In this document: in pieces, positions 5,169-12,994 of the stretch | Numbering within the stretch: the stretch's first letter is position 1 | Layout of the letters: each line of letters opens with the position of its first letter | Source: Polynucleobacter necessarius | GTDB taxonomy: Bacteria; Pseudomonadota; Gammaproteobacteria; Burkholderiales; Burkholderiaceae | Direction of reading: 5' to 3' | Assembly (NCBI RefSeq): GCF_900095195.1 | Contig: NZ_LT606950.1 | Location: forward strand, 1,027,207-1,059,206 | DNA length: 32,000 bases | Program-made: the position numbers and the translations under genes | Notes under the pieces: model-generated | Databases searched by the model: none | What the model was told of the DNA's origin: nothing | Seen by the model: only the letters and a program-made list of their open reading frames with translations

Positions 5169-5628
5169 TTGGAACTTTTTAGCCCTGAATTCTTTTTGGC
5201 ACTACTGGCAATCATTATGATTGATTTGGTTTTGGCTGGAGATAACGCCATCGTGATTGCGATGGCAGCCCGAAATTTACCTTCTCATTTGCAGAAAAAA
5301 GCAATTGTCTGGGGAGCGGTAGGCGCTATCGCAGTACGTAGCGCAATGACTTTAGCAGTGGTGTACTTACCCAAGATCCCGGGCTTGAATTCTCAAGCTG
5401 GTTGAGCGTTATCCATCGATCACCTATTTAGGTGCTGGTGTATTGGCTTGGACGGCAGCAGAGATGATGACTTCAGAGCCCATGGTGCAAGAGTGGCAAG
5501 TATTCAACAATCCCGTATTTGAATACGCATCCCAGGCCCTAGTCATTATTGGTGTTCTTAGTGGTGGATTTGTAAGAAGTAGGTTGGCTCTTGAAGAGAA
5601 GATTGCGCCAGCTGTAAGCGCTGCCTGA
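5169..5628 (+). pseudogene. TerC-family (YjbE-type) integral membrane protein, fragmented and shortened
   Basis: The N-terminal piece (TTG start) is ELFSPEFFLALLAIIMIDLVLAGDNAIVIAMAARNLP...KAIVWGAVGAIAVRSAMT, a typical TerC motif, ending at a stop at 5403-5405. A C-terminal piece sits in another frame (5443-5628). The total length is well below that of intact family members. Confidence 0.7.
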
Positions 5629-5659
5629 ACAGCAGTCACCTAACTTAGGAGGTAATGTA

Positions 5660-6169
5660 ATGAATAAAGTTCTGATTCCTGTAGATGGTTCAAGCAATGC
5701 CTTGCTAGCTCTGAAACATGCAGTCAATGTTTATGGCAAGGACGCTCATACCGAAATTCATATTTGCAATGTGCAGCCAAAGCTGTACTTCCATATCGGA
5801 AAATATTTCAGCAAGAAAGATATTTATGAATGGCAAGCAGAGCGCGCAAAATGTGCTGCCCAGTCTGCTGTAGAGTTTTTAGAAAGGGCTGGTGTAAATT
5901 TCTCATTTACTTACGTTAGCGGCGATAAGGGAGAGGCCCTGCGAGACGAAGCAGAGCGACTCGGATGCGGTCGGATTGTGATTGGATTCGCAAAGAAAAA
6001 TACTCTTAGCAGATTGTTTGAGAACTCCACCACAGCCAAGTTGTTGGAAATCAGCAATATCCCAGTAGAGGTGGTAACTGGTAAATCCATTCCAACTTTA
6101 GAGCGTTGGGGTACTCCAGCCCTGGGTGCTGGCGCTGCTACAGCACTGGTAGCTGCCGTCATTGATTAA
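5660..6169 (+). CDS. Universal stress protein (UspA family)
   Basis: Intact 169 aa with SD-like taggagg 6-8 nt upstream. MNKVLIPVDGSSNALLALKHA... and ...GCGRIVIGFAKKNTLSRLFENSTTAKLLEISNIPVEVV fit the Usp fold. The Ala/Gly-rich C-terminal tail is unusual. Confidence 0.8.
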   Translation: MNKVLIPVDGSSNALLALKHAVNVYGKDAHTEIHICNVQPKLYFHIGKYFSKKDIYEWQAERAKCAAQSAVEFLERAGVNFSFTYVSGDKGEALRDEAERLGCGRIVIGFAKKNTLSRLFENSTTAKLLEISNIPVEVVTGKSIPTLERWGTPALGAGAATALVAAVID

Positions 6170-6333: not shown

Positions 6334-6549
6334 GTGGATGTGATCTTGGATTCAAAAGAGTTGCCTGAGCCTGAGTTAAAAGCGTTTACTGAGAATCGAG
6401 TGAAATGCTCTCCAAAGCGTTTATTTTGGCTTGTGCGAAAAATTAAGATTCAATATGCAGCAGTGCCCCATTCAAAAACCCAGTGCAATCAAAGCTGCTC
6501 GATTGAATTGCAGGCCTTTGATCATCAGCTGATTGAAGTCTCAGCATGA
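6334..6549 (+). CDS. Hypothetical small protein (71 aa, GTG start), orphan
   Basis: AGGAG at 6321-6325 lies 8 nt upstream of GTG 6334. The stop overlaps an ATG (ATGA at 6547-6550) that opens a further 40-aa basic ORF (6547-6669). I recognise no family. The ORF lies in an AT-rich spacer. Confidence 0.25.
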   Translation: MDVILDSKELPEPELKAFTENRVKCSPKRLFWLVRKIKIQYAAVPHSKTQCNQSCSIELQAFDHQLIEVSA

Positions 6550-6699
6550 CGGCGCGGGATAAGCGTACCGCTTTAGAGATGTGTTTAAAGAAAGTCTATA
6601 AACATGTTCAGAAGATCTTTCATAAGGCCCAAAAGTATGGACGATTATCAAAGCATGTTTACGTTTAAATTAAAGTACATTTAAGTATGATTTAATAGA

Positions 6700-6805
6700 A
6701 AAATAAACGGGGAGTAGCCCGCCTAGCAATAGGTCTCATATATCGACATTCCGACTGAAAAGTCCGGTATATGGGCAATAATTAGGGGCAAGACCATTTA
6801 CTTTA
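6700..6805 (+). promoter_or_regulatory. yybP-ykoY (manganese) riboswitch-like aptamer
   Basis: Three conserved blocks appear in the correct order and spacing. GGGGAGTAGC (6709-6718) is the 5' L1 signature. An internal loop TCGACATT (6743-6750) is flanked by CATATA/TATATG (compare conserved UUGACAU). TTAGGGGCAAGACC (6782-6795) is the 3' signature (compare UUUAGCAAGACC in the L. lactis element). P1-like pairing is possible between AAATAAAC (about 6701-6708) and ATTTAC(TTT) (6796-6804). An inner hairpin GCCTA-GCAA-TAGGT has a GNRA loop. A downstream hairpin CCATTT...AAATGG (6794-6814) competes with the P1 3' strand. Confidence 0.7.
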
Positions 6806-6923
6806 AGCAAATGGCCAAAAAATATTTTTCCTCCCTTGTTTATCGCGCATGTTTTGGTGCTTTGCTGCCCTAGATTGGGGAGCAATAGTAAGGCGTTGCG
6901 TAAATGCTGAGGATAATTTGTAC

Positions 6924-7380
6924 ATGCGGCACCGAAGTGCATTCCACGGGACATTTTCCGTTTGGTTTTTGCTAGCCTTTATTGGTAGTTTTGGCCCATC
7001 CATGGCCCATGGCCAGGCCGCTTCACAAGATAAAAAATCGTATTCAATTAACGACCTCATTCAGGTTGCTCTAGAATCCAGCCCTCAAGTATTGGCGGCT
7101 CGAGACCAAGCAAAAGCTATCAGAGGTCAACTATCTACTGCTCGAGCAATACCCAATCCAGGTTTGAAGTGGCTATTGGACAGCAGCGTTCAGTAACTGG
7201 ACCATTGACGGTTGGAAATGTCTCATCTTGGTCTGTTACTCAACCTTTAGATATGCCATATACCAACCCGAGAGTGATTGCAGGAGGCACCATGCCTTCT
7301 AGCGCAATCTCGCTAGGGTCGATGTATGGCCGATTAGCTGATGACATTGGACGATTGTACGAGTATGAAACGCTTTTTGC
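6924..7380 (+). pseudogene. TolC/CzcC-family outer membrane efflux protein, N-terminal fragment only
   Basis: A signal peptide MRHRSAFHGTFSVWFLLAFIGSFGPSMAHG is followed by SYSINDLIQVALESSPQVLAARDQAKAIRGQLSTARAIPNP, the typical OMF N-terminus. There is a frameshift near 7170-7196. Similarity runs to ...PRVIAGG...RLYEYETLFAQ and ends about where the convergent queG stop lies (7381-7383). About 150 of an expected 420 aa or so remain. Confidence 0.7.
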
Positions 7381-8481
7381 TCAAACCGCACAACCAAGTG
7401 CCCACGTAATATGCTCTGCCACCAATGAATCTGCGCTCGGCAAACTCTCCTGCAACGCTTTGCGCATGAGCTCTTTGTCTTGATCTGGAACTTTAGTACT
7501 GGCCAACGCATTTCCCATGGCAACTGCAAGATTACGACGCCAACGGTGATAACCAATTCGACGAATCGCACTGCCCTCATGACGCTGTTCAAACTCCGCT
7601 TCAGTCCATGACCATAAATGCAACAGGCTCGCTTGACCGAGACCGTGACGTTGCGCAAAATCCGGCAAATCGGTTCGCTTGGCAAATTTATTCCATGGAC
7701 AAATGAGCTGACAGTCATCGCATCCATAAATACGATTACCCATGGCCGCTCGAAACTCTGTCGGAATAATGTCAGGATTTTCAATTGTTAGATAGGAGAT
7801 GCAGCGCCGCGCATCCAATTGGTATGGGGCTGTAATGGCTTTGGTTGGACACACATCAATGCAGGATTGACAGGTACCGCAATGCTCTTCCTGTGGTGCA
7901 TCGATGGGTAGCGGGATGTCTACCAAAATCTCGCCCAAGAAAAATGTTGAACCTGATTCTCGATTGATTAATAAGGTGTGCCTACCTCGCCAACCCAATC
8001 CTGCCTTTCGCGCGAGTTCAACTTCCATTAATGGGGCAGAGTCTGTAAATACACGATAACCAAAAGGTCCGATTTTTTTCTCAATCTCGGTAGCAAACGC
8101 TTGCATGCGCTGACGAAGCACTTTGTGATAATCGCGCCCTCGCGCATACAGTGATATCACCGCTTGCTCAGGCTCCTCAAGGCGCTGCCATTCGGAATCA
8201 AAGTTAGCATCTGGCGGCAAGTAATTCATCATGACGGATATAACGCGTCCTGATCCAGGAACAAGTAATTGCGGGTTAGACCGCAAATCTGCATGACGCT
8301 GCATGTATTCCATATGTCCATGTCGCCCCTCGGATAACCATGCCTGCAATCGCTCGCTCGCCTGACCAAGCTGCGTATCAGCAATCCGTAGACCGTCAAA
8401 TCCAAATTCCCTAGCTTTTTCAGAGAGCCAAGCGCGTAGCTGGGCCTCATTAACAGTGGTGGAATGGTTTGATAAAGGCAC
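7381..8481 (-). CDS. queG: Epoxyqueuosine reductase (tRNA epoxyqueuosine(34) reductase)
   Basis: Intact 366 aa. It has two ferredoxin-type Cys clusters (CGTCQSCIDVCP ... CDDCQLICPWN) and a C-terminal HEAT-like tail, with overall QueG colinearity. Confidence 0.9.
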   Translation of the reverse strand: MPLSNHSTTVNEAQLRAWLSEKAREFGFDGLRIADTQLGQASERLQAWLSEGRHGHMEYMQRHADLRSNPQLLVPGSGRVISVMMNYLPPDANFDSEWQRLEEPEQAVISLYARGRDYHKVLRQRMQAFATEIEKKIGPFGYRVFTDSAPLMEVELARKAGLGWRGRHTLLINRESGSTFFLGEILVDIPLPIDAPQEEHCGTCQSCIDVCPTKAITAPYQLDARRCISYLTIENPDIIPTEFRAAMGNRIYGCDDCQLICPWNKFAKRTDLPDFAQRHGLGQASLLHLWSWTEAEFEQRHEGSAIRRIGYHRWRRNLAVAMGNALASTKVPDQDKELMRKALQESLPSADSLVAEHITWALGCAV

Positions 8482-8523
8482 ATGAATAGAGAATGTAGCG
8501 CAATAATTGAATAAACTAGAAGA

Positions 8524-9039
8524 ATGTCCAATACACTAGCTATTTTTGAGCAACATTGTAGGCAAGAGGCAGATACCGCCAAACTTGCCAAACAACTTGC
8601 CGGCAGGATTTCTGGATTTTTAGAGCGTCACCCTCAGGGGCACCTTAATATCTCGCTCATTGGTAATTTGGGGGCAGGTAAAACTACATTTGCCCGCTAT
8701 TTGATTCAGGCCATGGGGCATGAGGGGAAAGTCAAAAGTCCAACGTACACCCTGTGCGAACCCTACTCTATTCAAATGCGATCGAGCTCGGTCACAGCTC
8801 ACCATTTTGATCTTTACCGAATGCGAGACCCGCTCGAATGGCAGGAGGCCGGTTTTGCAGAATATTTTGATGTGCCTGGCTTTTGTTTAATTGAATGGCC
8901 AGAAAAAGCGGAGGGCACTCTTCCGTCTTTTGATCTTCAAATTGAGTTGCTTGCTGGTGCCAATGAAAATGAACGCACGATCACGATCACCGGATTACTC
9001 CGTGATGGGGTAACCGTTTTAAAGAGTCTGAACCAATAA
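8524..9039 (+). CDS. tsaE: tRNA threonylcarbamoyladenosine (t6A) biosynthesis ATPase TsaE
   Basis: Intact 171 aa. It has the P-loop GNLGAGKTTFARYL, ...SPTYTL... and HFDLYR motifs typical of TsaE/YjeE. It is divergent from queG and directly abuts amiC (TAA ATG). Confidence 0.9.
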   Translation: MSNTLAIFEQHCRQEADTAKLAKQLAGRISGFLERHPQGHLNISLIGNLGAGKTTFARYLIQAMGHEGKVKSPTYTLCEPYSIQMRSSSVTAHHFDLYRMRDPLEWQEAGFAEYFDVPGFCLIEWPEKAEGTLPSFDLQIELLAGANENERTITITGLLRDGVTVLKSLNQ

Positions 9040-10374
9040 ATGATCAGCAACAATAAGACCAATCTTGCGAGAAGACGCAATCTTAAGACCTCTGCCAAGC
9101 TGATTAGTTTTGCCCTACTACTGACTGAGGTAGAGATTGCTTGGGGCGCCAAAATTTTAGGCGTACGTGTCTGGCCATCCGAGGATTACACCCGCATCAC
9201 TCTGGAATCCGATACGCCACTTCCGATCAGTCAACAGATATTGACTAACCCAGATCGCTTAGTGGTGGACGTACAATGCTTGGAACAAAATTCCACCCTC
9301 AAAGATTTGGTAGCCAAAGTAAAACCGAACGATCCCTACATCTCTCAAGTGCGCGTGGGTCAATTTCAACCCGGGGTAGTCCGTTTGGTCTTTGACTTAA
9401 AAGAACCAATCAAGCCACAACTTTTTACACTCGATCCCGCTGGCGAATACAACTACCGCATGGTGTTCGATTTATATCCAACCACACCGCCTGACCCCTT
9501 AATGGAATTAGTCAAGAGTAGCGCTCGCAAAGAAGCGGCTTTAGCAAAGCCAAATGAAGAGGTGGATTTAATTGCTCAATTTGCTACTAAAAAAGATATT
9601 CCTAAGCCACCGGTGGCTCAAGCCATTCCGGAAACAAAAGAAGTTCCGGCACCAGCAAAATACAAGCGCCTGATTACGATTGCAATCGATCCTGGTCATG
9701 GCGGTGAGGACCCTGGCGCCATAGGCTCACTGGGATCACGTGAGAAGCACGTTGTCCTCTCGATTGCCAAAAGACTGAAAGATAAGATTGAGAACGAGGC
9801 TTATATGCGCCCGTTTTTAACCAGAGACGGCGATTATTTTGTGCCACTGCATGTTCGGGTACAAAAAGCGCGGCGCGTAGAATCGGATTTGTTTGTCTCC
9901 ATCCATGCAGATGCATTTATTCAGCCGCATGCGAAAGGTGCCTCAGTTTTTGCTCTATCGCAAATGGGCGCTAGTAGCTCGATGGCGCGGTGGATGGCCA
10001 ATAAGGAAAATGCATCGGATTTAATTGGCGGCATCAACATCAAGAACCAAGATCGACAAGTCGCTAACCTATTGCTGGATATGTCTACTACCGCCCAGAT
10101 TAAAAATTCGCTAGTGGCTGGTAATTCAGTCCTCAAGCAAATCGGAGGATTTGCGCCCTTACATAAAGGGAAGGTTGAGCAGGCAAGTTTTGCTGTTTTA
10201 AAGGCCCCCGATATTCCATCCATCCTTGTGGAGACAGCTTTTATTAGCAACCCCCAAGAAGAGGCTAAACTGAATGATGATGGCTACCAAGACCGAATCG
10301 CCGATGCTATTTTGAAGGGGATTAAGGATTATTTTTCCAAAAATCCGCCCGTGGCCCGCAGAATGAATTCATAA
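9040..10374 (+). CDS. amiC: N-acetylmuramoyl-L-alanine amidase (AmiC-type, AMIN domain plus Amidase_3)
   Basis: Intact 444 aa. It has a twin-arginine-like leader (ARRRNLKTSAKL), an AMIN domain (ILGVRVWPSEDYTRITLESD), a Pro-rich linker and a catalytic domain (ITIAIDPGHGGEDPGAIG ... SIHADAF ... LVETAFISNPQEE). Confidence 0.9.
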   Translation: MISNNKTNLARRRNLKTSAKLISFALLLTEVEIAWGAKILGVRVWPSEDYTRITLESDTPLPISQQILTNPDRLVVDVQCLEQNSTLKDLVAKVKPNDPYISQVRVGQFQPGVVRLVFDLKEPIKPQLFTLDPAGEYNYRMVFDLYPTTPPDPLMELVKSSARKEAALAKPNEEVDLIAQFATKKDIPKPPVAQAIPETKEVPAPAKYKRLITIAIDPGHGGEDPGAIGSLGSREKHVVLSIAKRLKDKIENEAYMRPFLTRDGDYFVPLHVRVQKARRVESDLFVSIHADAFIQPHAKGASVFALSQMGASSSMARWMANKENASDLIGGINIKNQDRQVANLLLDMSTTAQIKNSLVAGNSVLKQIGGFAPLHKGKVEQASFAVLKAPDIPSILVETAFISNPQEEAKLNDDGYQDRIADAILKGIKDYFSKNPPVARRMNS

Positions 10375-10439
10375 ACAAGTCGCAACTACAAGGACTTATG
10401 GGCAGCCCCCATAGACTGAGAGATTGCCCACCAAGTTCT

Positions 10440-10448
10440 TGCTATAAT
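10440..10448 (+). promoter_or_regulatory. Extended -10 promoter element for tRNA-Lys
   Basis: TGcTATAAT at 10440-10448 lies 13 nt upstream of the mature tRNA 5' end. I see no good -35 at 17-bp spacing, which is compatible with an extended -10 promoter. Confidence 0.45.
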
Positions 10449-10461
10449 CTATGGCTTAACT

Positions 10462-10537
10462 GGGTCGGTAGCTCAGTCGGTAGAGCAGCGGACTTTTAAT
10501 CCGTTGGTCGCGAGTTCGAATCTCGCCCGACCCACCA
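10462..10537 (+). tRNA. tRNA-Lys (anticodon UUU), CCA encoded
   Basis: The manual cloverleaf is: acceptor GGGTCGG/CCGACCC, D arm GCTC-AGTCGGT-AGAGC, anticodon stem GCGGA/TCCGT with loop CTTTTAA, variable TGGTC, T arm GCGAG-TTCGAAT-CTCGC, then A-CCA. Length 76 nt. Confidence 0.95.
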
Positions 10538-10545
10538 GTTATACA

Positions 10546-10575
10546 AAAGCCACCCTTAAGGTGGCTTTTTCTTTT
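10546..10575. terminator. Bidirectional rho-independent terminator (tRNA-Lys / convergent hydrolase remnant)
   Basis: AAAGCCACC-cttaa-GGTGGCTTT hairpin flanked by an A-run upstream and TTTTTCTTTTT downstream. Confidence 0.7.
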
Positions 10576-11580
10576 TCAATGAGGTACTTGAAAAGTATCG
10601 AGTAAACCATTTTTTCTTTAGCCAAGCTTCAATCAAGTCAGCTATCAGAATATTATTTCGGTCCATCATCATCAGCATATGGGAATTACCTTTAATTCCA
10701 ACGTCGGGCAAATTAATCACATCCACACTATCACCAGCCTCAATATATTTTTGATTCAAGTCAAGTTGGGTTTTGCGAATATTAGGCCAACGAGAATCTT
10801 GATCTATGTAGTCACCATATATTGTCAATATAGGTGTATTTTTTAGAGCAGCAGCCTTAGCTGGATCACCAAAACCAGCAGGTTCAACCAAAATTAGCGC
10901 CTTTACCTTATCCGGTCTAGCTTGCGCAACCTTCTGTCCAAATTGACCAGTCTGACTATGCACCAAAACCACACAAGGGCAAACTCGATCAACGAGCTCA
11001 GTACAGTATATGCAGCAATCGTTGCAGCGTCTGTAGTAGTCCATCGAGGCACAACCTGCTTCATAAAGTTCTGGTAACCTTCCGCAGGAAACAAGCTTCC
11101 AGGAAATTGGGTGCGCTTAGAGGCATCATTACTCCAATTGCCGGCCCCCATGCGAAATCGGCCCCAAGGATTCTCAACTGTTAAAAATTGTGGCTCAGAC
11201 GGCCAAATATCAGGGGAAGCTCAGCCTAAGCGTCCACGCTCAACCGCATCAGATACATAAGTTTTCCACCCTTTACGAATGAAGTAGTTCTGCCAACCCT
11301 CTCTACCATCAGGCGTGGTTTCATAAGTAACGCCAGTCAAGCCACCAGCATGCCAAAGCATAATAGGCAATTTTCCCTTAACGTCCCTCGGAATAAAGTA
11401 CTGCACATACATTTGCTCAACTAAATAATTACCATTGGGATCAATTTTTGCAGGGGCACTTCCAGGACTAAAAACAACTTCTTTAATCGGGCGACCTGAG
11501 ATCTCCACTAAGCAACCTCCAACATGAAAGGATCCCATATCCACCACATTGAGTGGCGGCAACTTAGATTGCGCGATTAG
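10556..11580 (-). pseudogene. Alpha/beta-fold hydrolase (esterase-like), frameshifted and lacking its own start
   Basis: Three minus-strand frames read colinearly. First: ...VDMGSFHVGGCLVEISGRPIKE...KLPIMLWHAGGLTGVTYETTPDGREGWQNYFIRKGWKTYVSDAVERGR. Second: MGAGNWSNDASKRTQFPG...FMKQVVPRW. Third: VVLVHSQTGQFG (nucleophile-elbow-like) ...KALILVEPAGFG...GNSHMLMMMDRNN. The N-terminus is fused in frame to efflux-gene remnants. An A-run indel near 10605-10612 shifts the C-terminus. Confidence 0.7.
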
Positions 11581-12340
11581 CAGCTTGGTCGGCCAGCTGG
11601 CTAGCACTTTTGCTTTTAAGCATGCCAACTGGGATTGTGTTAATTCTGTTGAAGTAATCTTGGCTAATACATCACCCTGCTTCACGACCTGACCGCCCTT
11701 AAAATCCCAAATAGGAATACTTATCTGCAATCCATACAAACGATCGGTAAAGTTCGGGTCATTGTATTGAGAAACTTTAAAAGCCAATTTCGGTAAACGA
11801 GAATTTTTCTCAAAACTTAATTTTGACTCACTCGCCTCAACATCAGCTTTTGCTTTTTGCAATTCAGGGCTTTGTGCTTGTAATTCACCCAATAAGATAT
11901 TTAATAGTGGTAAGTTTTCAACTTTAGGTTGCTCATGCACAACGCTAAAATTATCTGGCAGTGCATGTCCAACCACCTGACGCAATCCGTTGCGAGCCTG
12001 CTCTACTCTCAGCTTTCCAGATTCCGAGGCAATTTGAGCATTCAGAAATTCGGTTTGAGCACGAATCAGTTCAAACCGCGCAGTCTCACCAACGTCATAA
12101 CGTAATTGCATACGATCCCGAATCTGTTTTGTAAGGTTAAGATCCTCATCGGCAGCTTTAGACTCAGCTTCGCATCGCATGAGCTCATAAAACGCTGCTG
12201 CACTTTAGAAATAACCTCGATTTCAAAAGCAATGCGAGTTGTTTCTGCCGAACGGTAATTGGCCTCGGCAGCGTTTACTCGTGGGAAACGGGTATATATT
12301 AACCCGCTGTTCTTCTTGCTCACATTTACCGAAGTGAAGC
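11581..12340 (-). pseudogene. Remnants of an RND-type efflux operon: TolC/CzcC-family outer membrane factor (middle part) fused to a short HlyD/MFP adaptor fragment
   Basis: The OMF-like coiled-coil repeats are ...PRVNAAEANYRSAETTRIAFEIEVISKVQQRF / YELMRCEAESKAADEDLNLTKQIRDRMQLRYDVGETARFELIRAQTEFLNA...LPLLNILLGELQAQSPELQKAKADVEASESKLSFEKNSRLPKLAF...GLQISIPIWDF. There is a 1-nt frameshift in a T run near 12185-12190. This is followed directly by GGQVVKQGDVLAKITSTELTQSQL, a lipoyl-like motif of membrane fusion proteins. Both ends of the OMF and nearly all of the MFP are missing. Confidence 0.65.
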
Positions 12341-12410
12341 CTTGGATCAATCGTATTGCGATTTTTATGGGATGCATCTTTGGCCCGATCTTCTTTGTGA
12401 TTGATCGTGA

Positions 12411-12994
12411 GGTAATGACCAATTCACCTTTGAGATATTCAATAACAATGCTTTTACCGTTTGCATCATGCAATGTCATCCGCACTGGTGCGGATTGATT
12501 ACGGAATGCTGGAATAATGGAGCGATTCACCATAATCTTCGGAAAAGCCGCCTTCACTTCATCAACAGTAGAAAAATTAGTGAGAGCATAAGTCAACATT
12601 TGCACTGAGGCGATGCTCTTGGCAGAGTCACCTGGGGGCACCGCTTGATATACAGCAGTATTTTGGGCATTTAACAATCCCCCAACCAAGCCTTTCTCAT
12701 TCATACCATCAACCAACACTGGCAAACCAAGGCCATTCATGCCTGCCGTTGCGTATTTGGTAGTCTAATTAAGACCGGTTCCAAGCTTGCTGTCTACACC
12801 CACACCAAACATCGCAGTATTTTTTGGAATTACTGTAACTTGGGATTTCAGAGGCAAGCCGAACTCCATAGTACGGCCATATACGTATCCACCATCATTT
12901 CCTTTAATCAAAAAAAACTGGTACAGGCATTACCAGCCATTGGAATAAACGCGATCGATGTTGCTAACGATGTAGCGATGATTTTCTTAAGCAT
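12411..12994 (-). pseudogene. Choloylglycine hydrolase family (linear amide C-N hydrolase, Ntn-type), N-terminal two-thirds with lesions
   Basis: ATG at 12994-12992, then a signal peptide MLKKIIATSLATSIAFIPMAGNA and the nucleophile Cys (CTSFF). A T8 run (12910-12917) breaks the frame; with T9 it would read CTSFFLIKGNDGGYVYGRTMEFGLPL. An in-frame TAG at 12765-12767 sits where family members have Trp (..LN*TTKYATAG). The hallmark VDGMNEKGLVGG is present. Similarity stops after ...SIVIEYLKGELVI (about 12411). Confidence 0.75.

Follow-up and report, generated by a model that had tools for sequence, protein, structure and literature searches.

A P4-less yybP-ykoY-class riboswitch aptamer, the probable leader of a lost czcCBA efflux operon in Polynucleobacter necessarius

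Introduction

A stretch of 32,000 nucleotides from the genome of Polynucleobacter necessarius (NCBI RefSeq assembly GCF_900095195.1, contig NZ_LT606950.1, positions 1,027,207 to 1,059,206 of the forward strand; hereafter the window, in which position 1 is the first letter) carries an RNA element of the yybP-ykoY (Mn2+) riboswitch class at positions 6701-6803 of the + strand. The element is very probably an intact aptamer of this class in a form that lacks helix P4. Ancestrally it would have been the leader, with proposed ON switching, of a czcCBA operon that encodes an HmyCBA-like pump of the resistance-nodulation-division (RND) type; in the window it is now a recent orphan. The riboswitch class and its P4-less form are already known, and what is new, as far as our searches reach, is an RND pump as the target.

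Architecture of the aptamer

The aptamer adopts the three-way-junction form, as delineated by covariance models, covariation and comparison with Rfam. The 5′ strand of P1 (6704-6710) leads into the 5′ strand of loop L1 (GGAGTA, 6711-6716), and the opposing strands of L1 (AAGA, 6790-6793) and P1 (6794-6800) close the element. Within this frame, P1.2 pairs 6717-6720 with 6786-6789 and P2 pairs 6721-6725 with 6730-6734 beneath a GCAA loop. P3.1 (6735-6745 with 6765-6775) is separated from P3.2 (6753-6756 with 6761-6764) by L3, an asymmetric bulge of 7 nt (ACATTCC, 6746-6752), and an AU-rich linker at 6776-6785 takes the place of P4. A first-pass annotation, made from the letters of the window, had recognized the class by three signature blocks, namely GGGGAGTAGC at 6709-6718, CGACAT within a CATATA/TATATG helix at 6736-6775, and TTAGGGGCAAGACC at 6782-6795, together with a competing hairpin at 6794-6814. 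All four lie where it had placed them.

The loops that define the class are preserved in detail. The consensus of the L1 5′ strand, GGGGAGUAG, is matched by GGGGAGTAG at 6709-6717 and is invariant in 26 reference relatives, which are the element-bearing relatives minus two decaying copies, L033 and L011 (L numbers designate the loci collected for comparison). The L1 3′ strand, with the consensus A-R-G-A ahead of the CC of P1, reads GCAAGACC at 6788-6795 and is likewise invariant in relatives; a covariance-model alignment places it opposite GCGAGACC of Escherichia coli mntP. In the L3 bulge, C6747 and A6748 are invariant in 16 of 16 aligned sequences and correspond to C40 and A41 of Lactococcus lactis, where the N7 of A41 contacts Mn2+ (PMC6649816, PMC11672702). 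L3 occurs as UCAUUAC, UCAAUUC or ACAUUCC, the first of which is identical to L3 of E. coli alx. Of the 45 columns without variation among the 26 relatives, the window aptamer is changed at two; the changes are a compensated pair, C6720-G6786, and one linker position.

P4, and with it the four-way junction, is absent from the window and its relatives, which carry an AU-rich linker of 10-14 nt or, in some cases, a mini-hairpin of 3-4 bp. The missing helix does not disqualify the element from the class, because the validated Streptococcus pneumoniae mgtA riboswitch is also a three-way junction with a short linker in place of P4 (PMC6649816).

Class membership

The architecture of the class (P1, L1, P1.2, P2 with its GNRA loop, P3.1, L3 and P3.2) was drawn by hand on an alignment of 16 orthologues, in which 94% of cells are paired and eight pairs show changes on both sides. 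The covariation score is reached by none of 500 shuffles, and slid controls are at most 45% paired. Helices P1.2, P2, P3.1 and P3.2 are each paired in 95-99% of cells, are supported by covariation and are predicted independently by RNAalifold. P1, AAA(C)GG / CC(A)UUU, is paired in 83% of cells without double changes and contains a conserved C.A mismatch that is U-A in two sequences.

Two covariance models, R1 and R2, were built from Polynucleobacter sequences only, R2 being a leave-one-out model of 13 relatives from which the window was excluded. R1 scores the window aptamer at 111.6 bits, and R2 scores 6701-6803 at 106.1 bits (E 3e-30) as its sole match in the 32-kb window. Both models also match the validated E. 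coli mntP riboswitch over their full length (32 bits, E 1e-7 to 4e-7), with the P4 of mntP treated as an insertion, and E. coli alx weakly (14 bits). The metal-site nucleotides, the covariation and the leave-one-out score together bear out the riboswitch call of the first-pass annotation. Membership in the class is established at the level of sequence and structure, and ligand binding is predicted.

Association with czcCBA in Polynucleobacter

The element was traced through 36 Polynucleobacter loci, gathered with the intact Usp open reading frame (ORF) of the window (5660-6169) as anchor; it was located by blastn and then by R1, and operon proteins were mapped by tblastn on all loci. One copy is present in each of 28 loci, in most of them about 530 nt downstream of Usp. 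In every one of these 28, the gene that comes next is czcC, at the head of a czcCBA operon of the same orientation; about 150 nt separate the aptamer from the start codon. None of the six loci without czcCBA carries the element, and the block is missing from them as one unit. The gene order of locus L009 is a LysR gene (-), a TerC-Usp fusion, a terminator-like hairpin, an ORF of 110 amino acids (aa), the aptamer, czcC, czcB and czcA.

The element tracks czcCBA and not the small ORF, since L011 and L022 keep the element and the operon without the 110-aa ORF, and L002 keeps the ORF without the element and the operon. On this co-occurrence across loci, the element is the leader of czcCBA, within a variable accessory module, and is dispensable. 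One of two readings offered by the first-pass annotation, ancestral control of a czcC-like RND operon, is thereby upheld. The annotator had been aware of no description of such an association, and our full-text literature searches likewise brought up no publication that connects yybP-ykoY with RND or czcA.

Decay of the operon in the window

The G+C content of the window ranges from 41 to 50% across 1-kb windows, and many of its genes are broken, a picture that would fit a Polynucleobacter genome in decay. What remains of czcC beside the aptamer is a 5′ fragment of this outer-membrane-factor gene (6924-7285, +), a pseudogene recognized by tblastn and blastn. It keeps a signal-peptide-like N-terminus and has a frameshift near 7160-7196. 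In tblastn against CzcC of L009, one frame covers residues 51-114 (6978-7169) and a second frame residues 86-154 (7055-7285); blastn homology to relatives ends at 7260-7264. The truncated CzcC-type gene of the first-pass annotation is thus real, with homology that ends near 7264-7285 and not at 7380.

The middle part of czcC (residues ~145-350) lies 5 kb away on the opposite strand, at 11680-12296 (-), where it is identified by tblastn (82% identity, E 4e-89) and by a Pfam OEP match; by blastn it runs from 12296 down to 11690 and spans L009 ~11600 to 12204. The junction is exact, as L009 ~11600 maps both to window 7264 (+) and to 12296 (-). Next to it, a remnant of 127 nt from czcB (residues ~171-212) lies at 11569-11694 (-), and about 0.8 kb that comprised the 3′ end of czcC and the 5′ end of czcB is deleted. 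The rest of czcB is absent from the window, and tblastn finds no CzcA match in the 32 kb. Rearrangement has broken czcC at codon ~145, and deletions have removed most of czcB. A single inversion as the cause does not fit the order of a CBAH-family gene relative to the czc remnants; the history of the locus is described as rearrangement plus deletions.

The leader of the window retains its downstream hairpin H1, stem-loop T and GATAAT block (described below), and both TerC and the neighboring 110-aa ORF are pseudogenes. Judged from its sequence, the window riboswitch is a recent orphan with no exporter left under its control, its aptamer being intact while the pump is broken up and the neighbors are pseudogenes. 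Two statements of the first-pass annotation are modified by these results. "No recognizable exporter gene downstream" is an overstatement, because the exporter under regulation begins with this very czcC, now truncated. Its other reading, a leftover riboswitch whose exporter has been deleted, holds for the present state, with the correction that the lost exporter is this same czc operon and no other.

The closest relative of the window at this locus, L033 (a metagenome-assembled genome of an uncultured Polynucleobacter; 78-86% DNA identity), is decaying too. It has a split TerC and fragmented czcB and czcA genes, with one part of czcA lying inverted beside TerC. There the aptamer is eroding, with 72.7 bits and changes at 8 of the 45 invariant columns, in L1, in the closing pairs of P3 and in P1.

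The leader around the aptamer

Directly 5′ of the aptamer, a TGTGATCTAAT/TATGATCTAAT block is conserved in nearly all of 29 leaders. It includes TGaTTTAAT at 6688-6696 (+), which is TGnTCTAAT in relatives, looks like an extended -10 element and would start transcription a few nucleotides before P1. A promoter scan offers another pairing, TTTAAA-16-TATGAT at 6664-6691.

On the 3′ side, hairpin H1 (CCATTTAC/GCAAATGG, 6794-6814, +) is a candidate switching helix of the form CCATTTAC...CAAATGG. The P1 3′ strand, CCAUUUA, doubles as its 5′ arm, and H1 and P1 are therefore mutually exclusive. H1 is paired in 93% of cells in the 16 orthologues, is conserved in sequence and is predicted by RNAalifold. 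Its folding energy is -4.5 kcal/mol in the window and between about -5 and -8.1 kcal/mol in relatives, whereas the P1 duplex taken alone has only -1 to -3 kcal/mol.

About 65 nt beyond H1 in nearly all lineages follows stem-loop T (GCTGCCCTAGATTGGGGAGC, 6864-6883, +), which is terminator-like in relatives. Its core, CCCY...RGGG, is conserved in 28 of the 29 leaders (disrupted in L027), and its outer pairs are variable. A U-rich tail follows T in most relatives (e.g., GGGGAGTTTTTGT in L033 and GGGGACGTTTTCTTG in L009) and has been lost from the window (AATAGTAAGG). The GGGG arm of T is degraded in L034, a lineage without the aptamer. Long-range contacts between the GGGG of L1 and pyrimidine tracts farther downstream were discounted, because their positions shift between lineages.

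Nearer to czcC, a GATAAT block (6912-6917, +) is conserved in 27 of the 29 aligned leaders, being missing in L005 and carrying one mismatch in the decaying L033. In relatives it precedes the czcC start codon by ~35-40 nt and may be the -10 element of a second, riboswitch-independent czcCBA promoter. In some lineages, short upstream ORFs overlap GATAAT and end in a stop codon that overlaps the czcC ATG (TAATG); these ORFs are not conserved, and no conserved upstream ORF explains the conservation of the block. A small ORF or leader peptide between the aptamer and czcC is ruled out, as the reading frame, although open in some lineages, has no conserved start codon and its stops vary among relatives, coming early in others. 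This agrees with the first-pass annotation, which had found nothing recognizable encoded at 6806-6923.

Proposed switching mechanism

To our knowledge, every characterized member of the class is an ON switch, and a downstream hairpin that competes with P1 is the layout of these characterized switches. By analogy, the leader would be transcribed in free-living ancestors from its own extended -10 promoter. At high cytoplasmic Mn2+, the metal would bridge L1 (GGAGUA / AAGA) and the L3 bulge (C6747, A6748) and thereby stabilize the weak P1 helix. At low Mn2+, the P1 3′ strand would be captured by H1, which should win in the absence of ligand because it is more stable than the isolated P1 duplex. 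Capture by H1, together with the downstream stem-loop T, would then stop transcription or expression ahead of czcC, such that metal binding turns the pump on. Intrinsic termination, Rho-dependent termination and translation are all candidates for the read-out. Two sites could serve for it: H1, in the subgroup of relatives that has a U-rich tract behind it, and T.

The regulated pump

In relatives, the operon encodes an OEP protein (PF02321), a HlyD_D23/CzcB adaptor (TIGR00999, TIGR01730) and an RND permease of the CusA/CzcA family (TIGR00914, 1110 bits), for which the nearest solved structures are ZneA and CusA. The motif in transmembrane helix 4 (TM4) of the permease is AIGIMVDGSVVVVEN in all Polynucleobacter copies, in hmyA of Cupriavidus metallidurans CH34 and in Ralstonia and Methylomagnum homologues. 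The signature DFG-x3-DGA-x3-VEN, which characterizes TM4 in groups HME1 and HME2 (Czc/Cnr/Ncc) of the heavy-metal efflux (HME) pumps (PMC3637150), is not matched by the Polynucleobacter subunit. Because its TM4 is of the AIG-DGS-VEN type, the pump is filed as HmyA-like (HME3b, PMC2864759) and not as Czc proper.

The closest plasmid or chromid homologue of the RND subunit (64% identity) is found in the CHR2 locus of C. metallidurans CH34, where the order is OEP, adaptor, IS30-type transposase and RND. This agrees with the published cluster hmyCB|IS1088|hmyA, classed as HME3b (PMC2864759). Substrate predictions for the HmyA subgroup differ between PMC3637150 and PMC2864759. In Ralstonia solanacearum OE1-1, a small gene with a P-II family annotation (L040:9057-9380) comes after the HmyA-like RND gene. 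We tentatively suggest that in free-living Polynucleobacter a Mn2+ riboswitch might gate an HmyCBA-type (AIG-DGS-VEN, "HME3b") RND pump, which would imply manganese export, and that the window copy could be the fossil of this circuit.

Searches outside the genus

A protein search with CzcC did not reach other genera, as its best 120 matches are all from Polynucleobacter, at 84% identity or more. No Mn-riboswitch match was found upstream of the three nearest plasmid or chromid loci, namely hmy of CH34 and the homologues of Ralstonia OE1-1 and Methylomagnum.

A pattern built to skip Polynucleobacter, GGGGAGTAG-N60-90-GNRAGACCB, yielded 80 metagenomic loci (L042-L121), 16 of which are confirmed as aptamers by R2. 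Six of these 16 precede Alx/TerC genes, four GDT1/UPF0016 and one MntP, so that at least 11 stand before the families classically linked to the riboswitch. One precedes a Na_Ca_ex gene (L090:8914-9032, 27.8 bits), one a LysR regulator (L043:797-917, 37 bits), and three were not classified. CzcCBA homologues are found at none of the 80 pattern loci. In the literature consulted and in this sample of 16 aptamers (11 classifiable), Mn2+ riboswitches precede inner-membrane exporters (MntP, TerC/Alx, GDT1/UPF0016 and P-type ATPases), and none precedes an RND pump.

The other 64 pattern matches are unsupported by the covariance model. Many come from a small number of related sample series, on contigs with a G+C content of 38-47%; such matches have a near-constant length of ~100 nt and no obvious ORF downstream, and they may represent a repeated element unrelated to riboswitches.

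Comparison with known systems

The four-way-junction members of the class (L. lactis yoaB, E. coli mntP and alx, RF00080) share with the Polynucleobacter element the L1 5′ GGGGAGUAG and 3′ GCAAGACC strands, a 7-nt L3 with C-A, the arrangement of P1, P1.2, P2 and P3.1/P3.2, and a site in the 5′ leader of a metal-export operon. The leaders of E. coli mntP and alx are likewise long, with ~110-150 nt from the aptamer to the start codon. In contrast to these members, P4 of the window and its relatives is absent or reduced to the mini-hairpin, and their scores fall under the Rfam 15 gathering threshold. Their target is also different, being a tripartite RND pump (destroyed in the window) and not MntP, TerC/Alx, GDT1/UPF0016 or a P-type ATPase.

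The S. pneumoniae mgtA variant (PMC6649816) has in common with the Polynucleobacter element the three-way junction, L1, the C-A of L3 and a downstream hairpin that competes with P1. The linker of mgtA is an invariant UNAAA, whereas that of Polynucleobacter is AU-rich and 10-14 nt long (UAAUUUUUAA, or the mini-hairpin). The host in the present case is a beta-proteobacterium and the target an RND pump, whereas mgtA is a P-type ATPase, and a canonical U-tract terminator right after P1 is not evident in all Polynucleobacter lineages.

The HmyCBA system of C. metallidurans CH34 (HME3b, PMC2864759) shows the same C-B-A order, an identical TM4 (AIGx3DGSx3VEN) and the 64% identity of the RND subunit, yet it lacks a Mn-riboswitch match upstream. 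The czcD (NiCo) riboswitch is also a metal-ion ON switch ahead of czc-named efflux genes (PMC11672702, PMC9389577), but its fold is unrelated, its metal-site chemistry is different, and it has no similarity in sequence or structure to the Polynucleobacter element.

Neighboring genes

The TerC-Usp gene upstream of the element (5169-6169, +) is degraded in its TerC part by a deletion of ~250 bp at 5388, and its Usp part survives as an open ORF that begins with an ATG of its own. In relatives, TerC-Usp is a single ORF of 418 aa (L009:9254-10510) that combines a YjbE-type TerC (TIGR03717) with Usp. The element does not belong to this gene: a terminator-like hairpin follows Usp, and no aptamer is found upstream of TerC in the 37 sources searched with the covariance model, nor in an E-value-mode Rfam scan of L009. 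The degraded, unregulated TerC of the first-pass annotation is therefore confirmed, by tblastn and blastn as well as by this search. TIGR03717 bears the family name "R_switched_YjbE" from riboswitch control, and yet there is no aptamer upstream of TerC-Usp in the relatives.

Between Usp and the riboswitch lies a frameshifted copy of the conserved 110-aa ORF (6334-6662, +; tblastn pieces at 6334-6543 and 6546-6662), which is present at this site in most relatives (L009:10669-11001) and has no Pfam or NCBIfam match. As the element tracks czcCBA instead, assignment to this ORF is ruled out.

The segment between the two czcC pieces (7265-12740) contains queG (-), tsaE, an amidase gene and a tRNA (10462-10534). 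An ORF at 11221-12180 consists of alpha/beta-hydrolase-like fragments fused in frame to czc remnants, and the placement of the CBAH-family gene at 12066-12740 is unexplained by one inversion.

Alternative explanations

Several observations weigh against the reading of the element as a manganese-responsive ON switch of czcCBA. Mn2+ as the ligand and the ON polarity are both carried over from other members of the class. P1 and H1, the two helices that would exchange, show no covariation among the 16 orthologues. H1 is AU-rich, and only one subgroup of relatives has a U-rich tract behind it. T has a short stem of 4-8 bp, and there are lineages in which the tail after it is not rich in U. Neither RNAalifold nor constrained folding yields a consistent anti-terminator pairing, H1 and T being all that is recovered. 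Two free-living lineages have an intact czcCBA from which the aptamer region is deleted (L032, 11000-11300; L034, 8747-8930), and in a third, L011 (10713-10807), the operon is intact and the aptamer degenerate, with 31 bits and 8 of the 45 invariant columns changed. The switch is dispensable, given that these three lineages keep czcCBA. L032 and L034 also keep GATAAT, and its survival in aptamer-less loci suggests that the operon can be expressed without the switch as well.

The Rfam scores count on the same side. The first-pass annotation had looked to an RF00080 (Manganese) score above gathering for support, which is not what is found. In a permissive scan of 6550-7000, the best + strand match is at 6697-6846 with 27.7 bits (E 7.5e-6 for 451 nt), under the gathering score of 45, and L009 reaches 14.8 bits. 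At the gathering threshold there is no match in the window or in seven relatives, and a default Rfam scan of the window reports a tRNA only. With the same Rfam 15 model, however, the validated E. coli mntP leader (L037:5462-5576) scores 41.6 bits, also under gathering, and the E. coli alx leader (L038:4377-4471) is not found at E<=1. The failure is uninformative because these two fail too; the printed RF00080 consensus stops at P4 and is without the 3′ L1/P1 strand. That the element is no riboswitch at all, being instead a conserved czcCBA leader (e.g., a protein- or small-RNA-binding structure) that mimics the motifs by chance, would fit the unmatched threshold in the window and eight relatives. 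It is nevertheless extremely unlikely. The class-defining loops are invariant and the helices covary, the Rfam model in question misses validated members, and models made from Polynucleobacter alone match E. coli mntP and the 16 metagenomic aptamers, at least 11 of them by Alx/TerC, GDT1 or MntP.

A different metal on the same fold, which would make the element a specificity variant that responds to Cd2+, Co2+, Zn2+, Ni2+ or Fe2+, is improbable but has more to recommend it. The genes under control are of the heavy-metal RND family CusA/CzcA, for which the literature search found no paper on a manganese-exporting member. Crystals show Cd2+ bound at the same site by members of the class, and the S. 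pneumoniae member also responds to Ca2+ (PMC6649816). Against this, the metal-site nucleotides (GGGGAGUAG and GCAAGACC of L1, C-A of L3) match those of Mn2+-responsive members, the sequence bears no mark of a changed pocket, and the pump is not of the canonical HME1/2 Czc type (AIG-DGS-VEN as opposed to DFG-DGA-VEN; PMC3637150). For the window copy, an unlikely alternative is re-use, for example as a Mn2+-gated short regulatory RNA or, by read-through, as an antisense RNA to queG (7381-8481, -), which the rearrangement has placed head-on ~580 nt downstream. The loss of the U-tail of T would favor such read-through, and the aptamer, the promoter-like block and H1 are all intact. This intactness is, however, expected if the rearrangement is recent, and two changes or fewer in 103 nt are within neutral expectation; moreover, every neighboring gene of the module is a pseudogene, and the sister lineage L033 shows the aptamer in erosion. 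An intact P4-less aptamer of the yybP-ykoY class, once the leader of czcCBA and now orphaned, accordingly remains by far the most probable account.

Significance

The window illustrates that, as a genome decays, a cis-regulatory RNA can persist longer than the operon it served: the aptamer is intact here and eroding in the sister lineage L033. Annotation pipelines bound to thresholds likely miss such aptamers, because the Polynucleobacter copies as well as E. coli mntP and alx fall under the Rfam gathering score. Polynucleobacter is among the most abundant freshwater bacterial genera, and the link between the aptamer and an RND pump is conserved across 28 of its lineages, which yields a substrate hypothesis for an uncharacterized subgroup of heavy-metal RND pumps. 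If the hypothesis is true, manganese export by the Polynucleobacter pump would be a first among RND systems and would assign a substrate to an HME subgroup of unestablished specificity.

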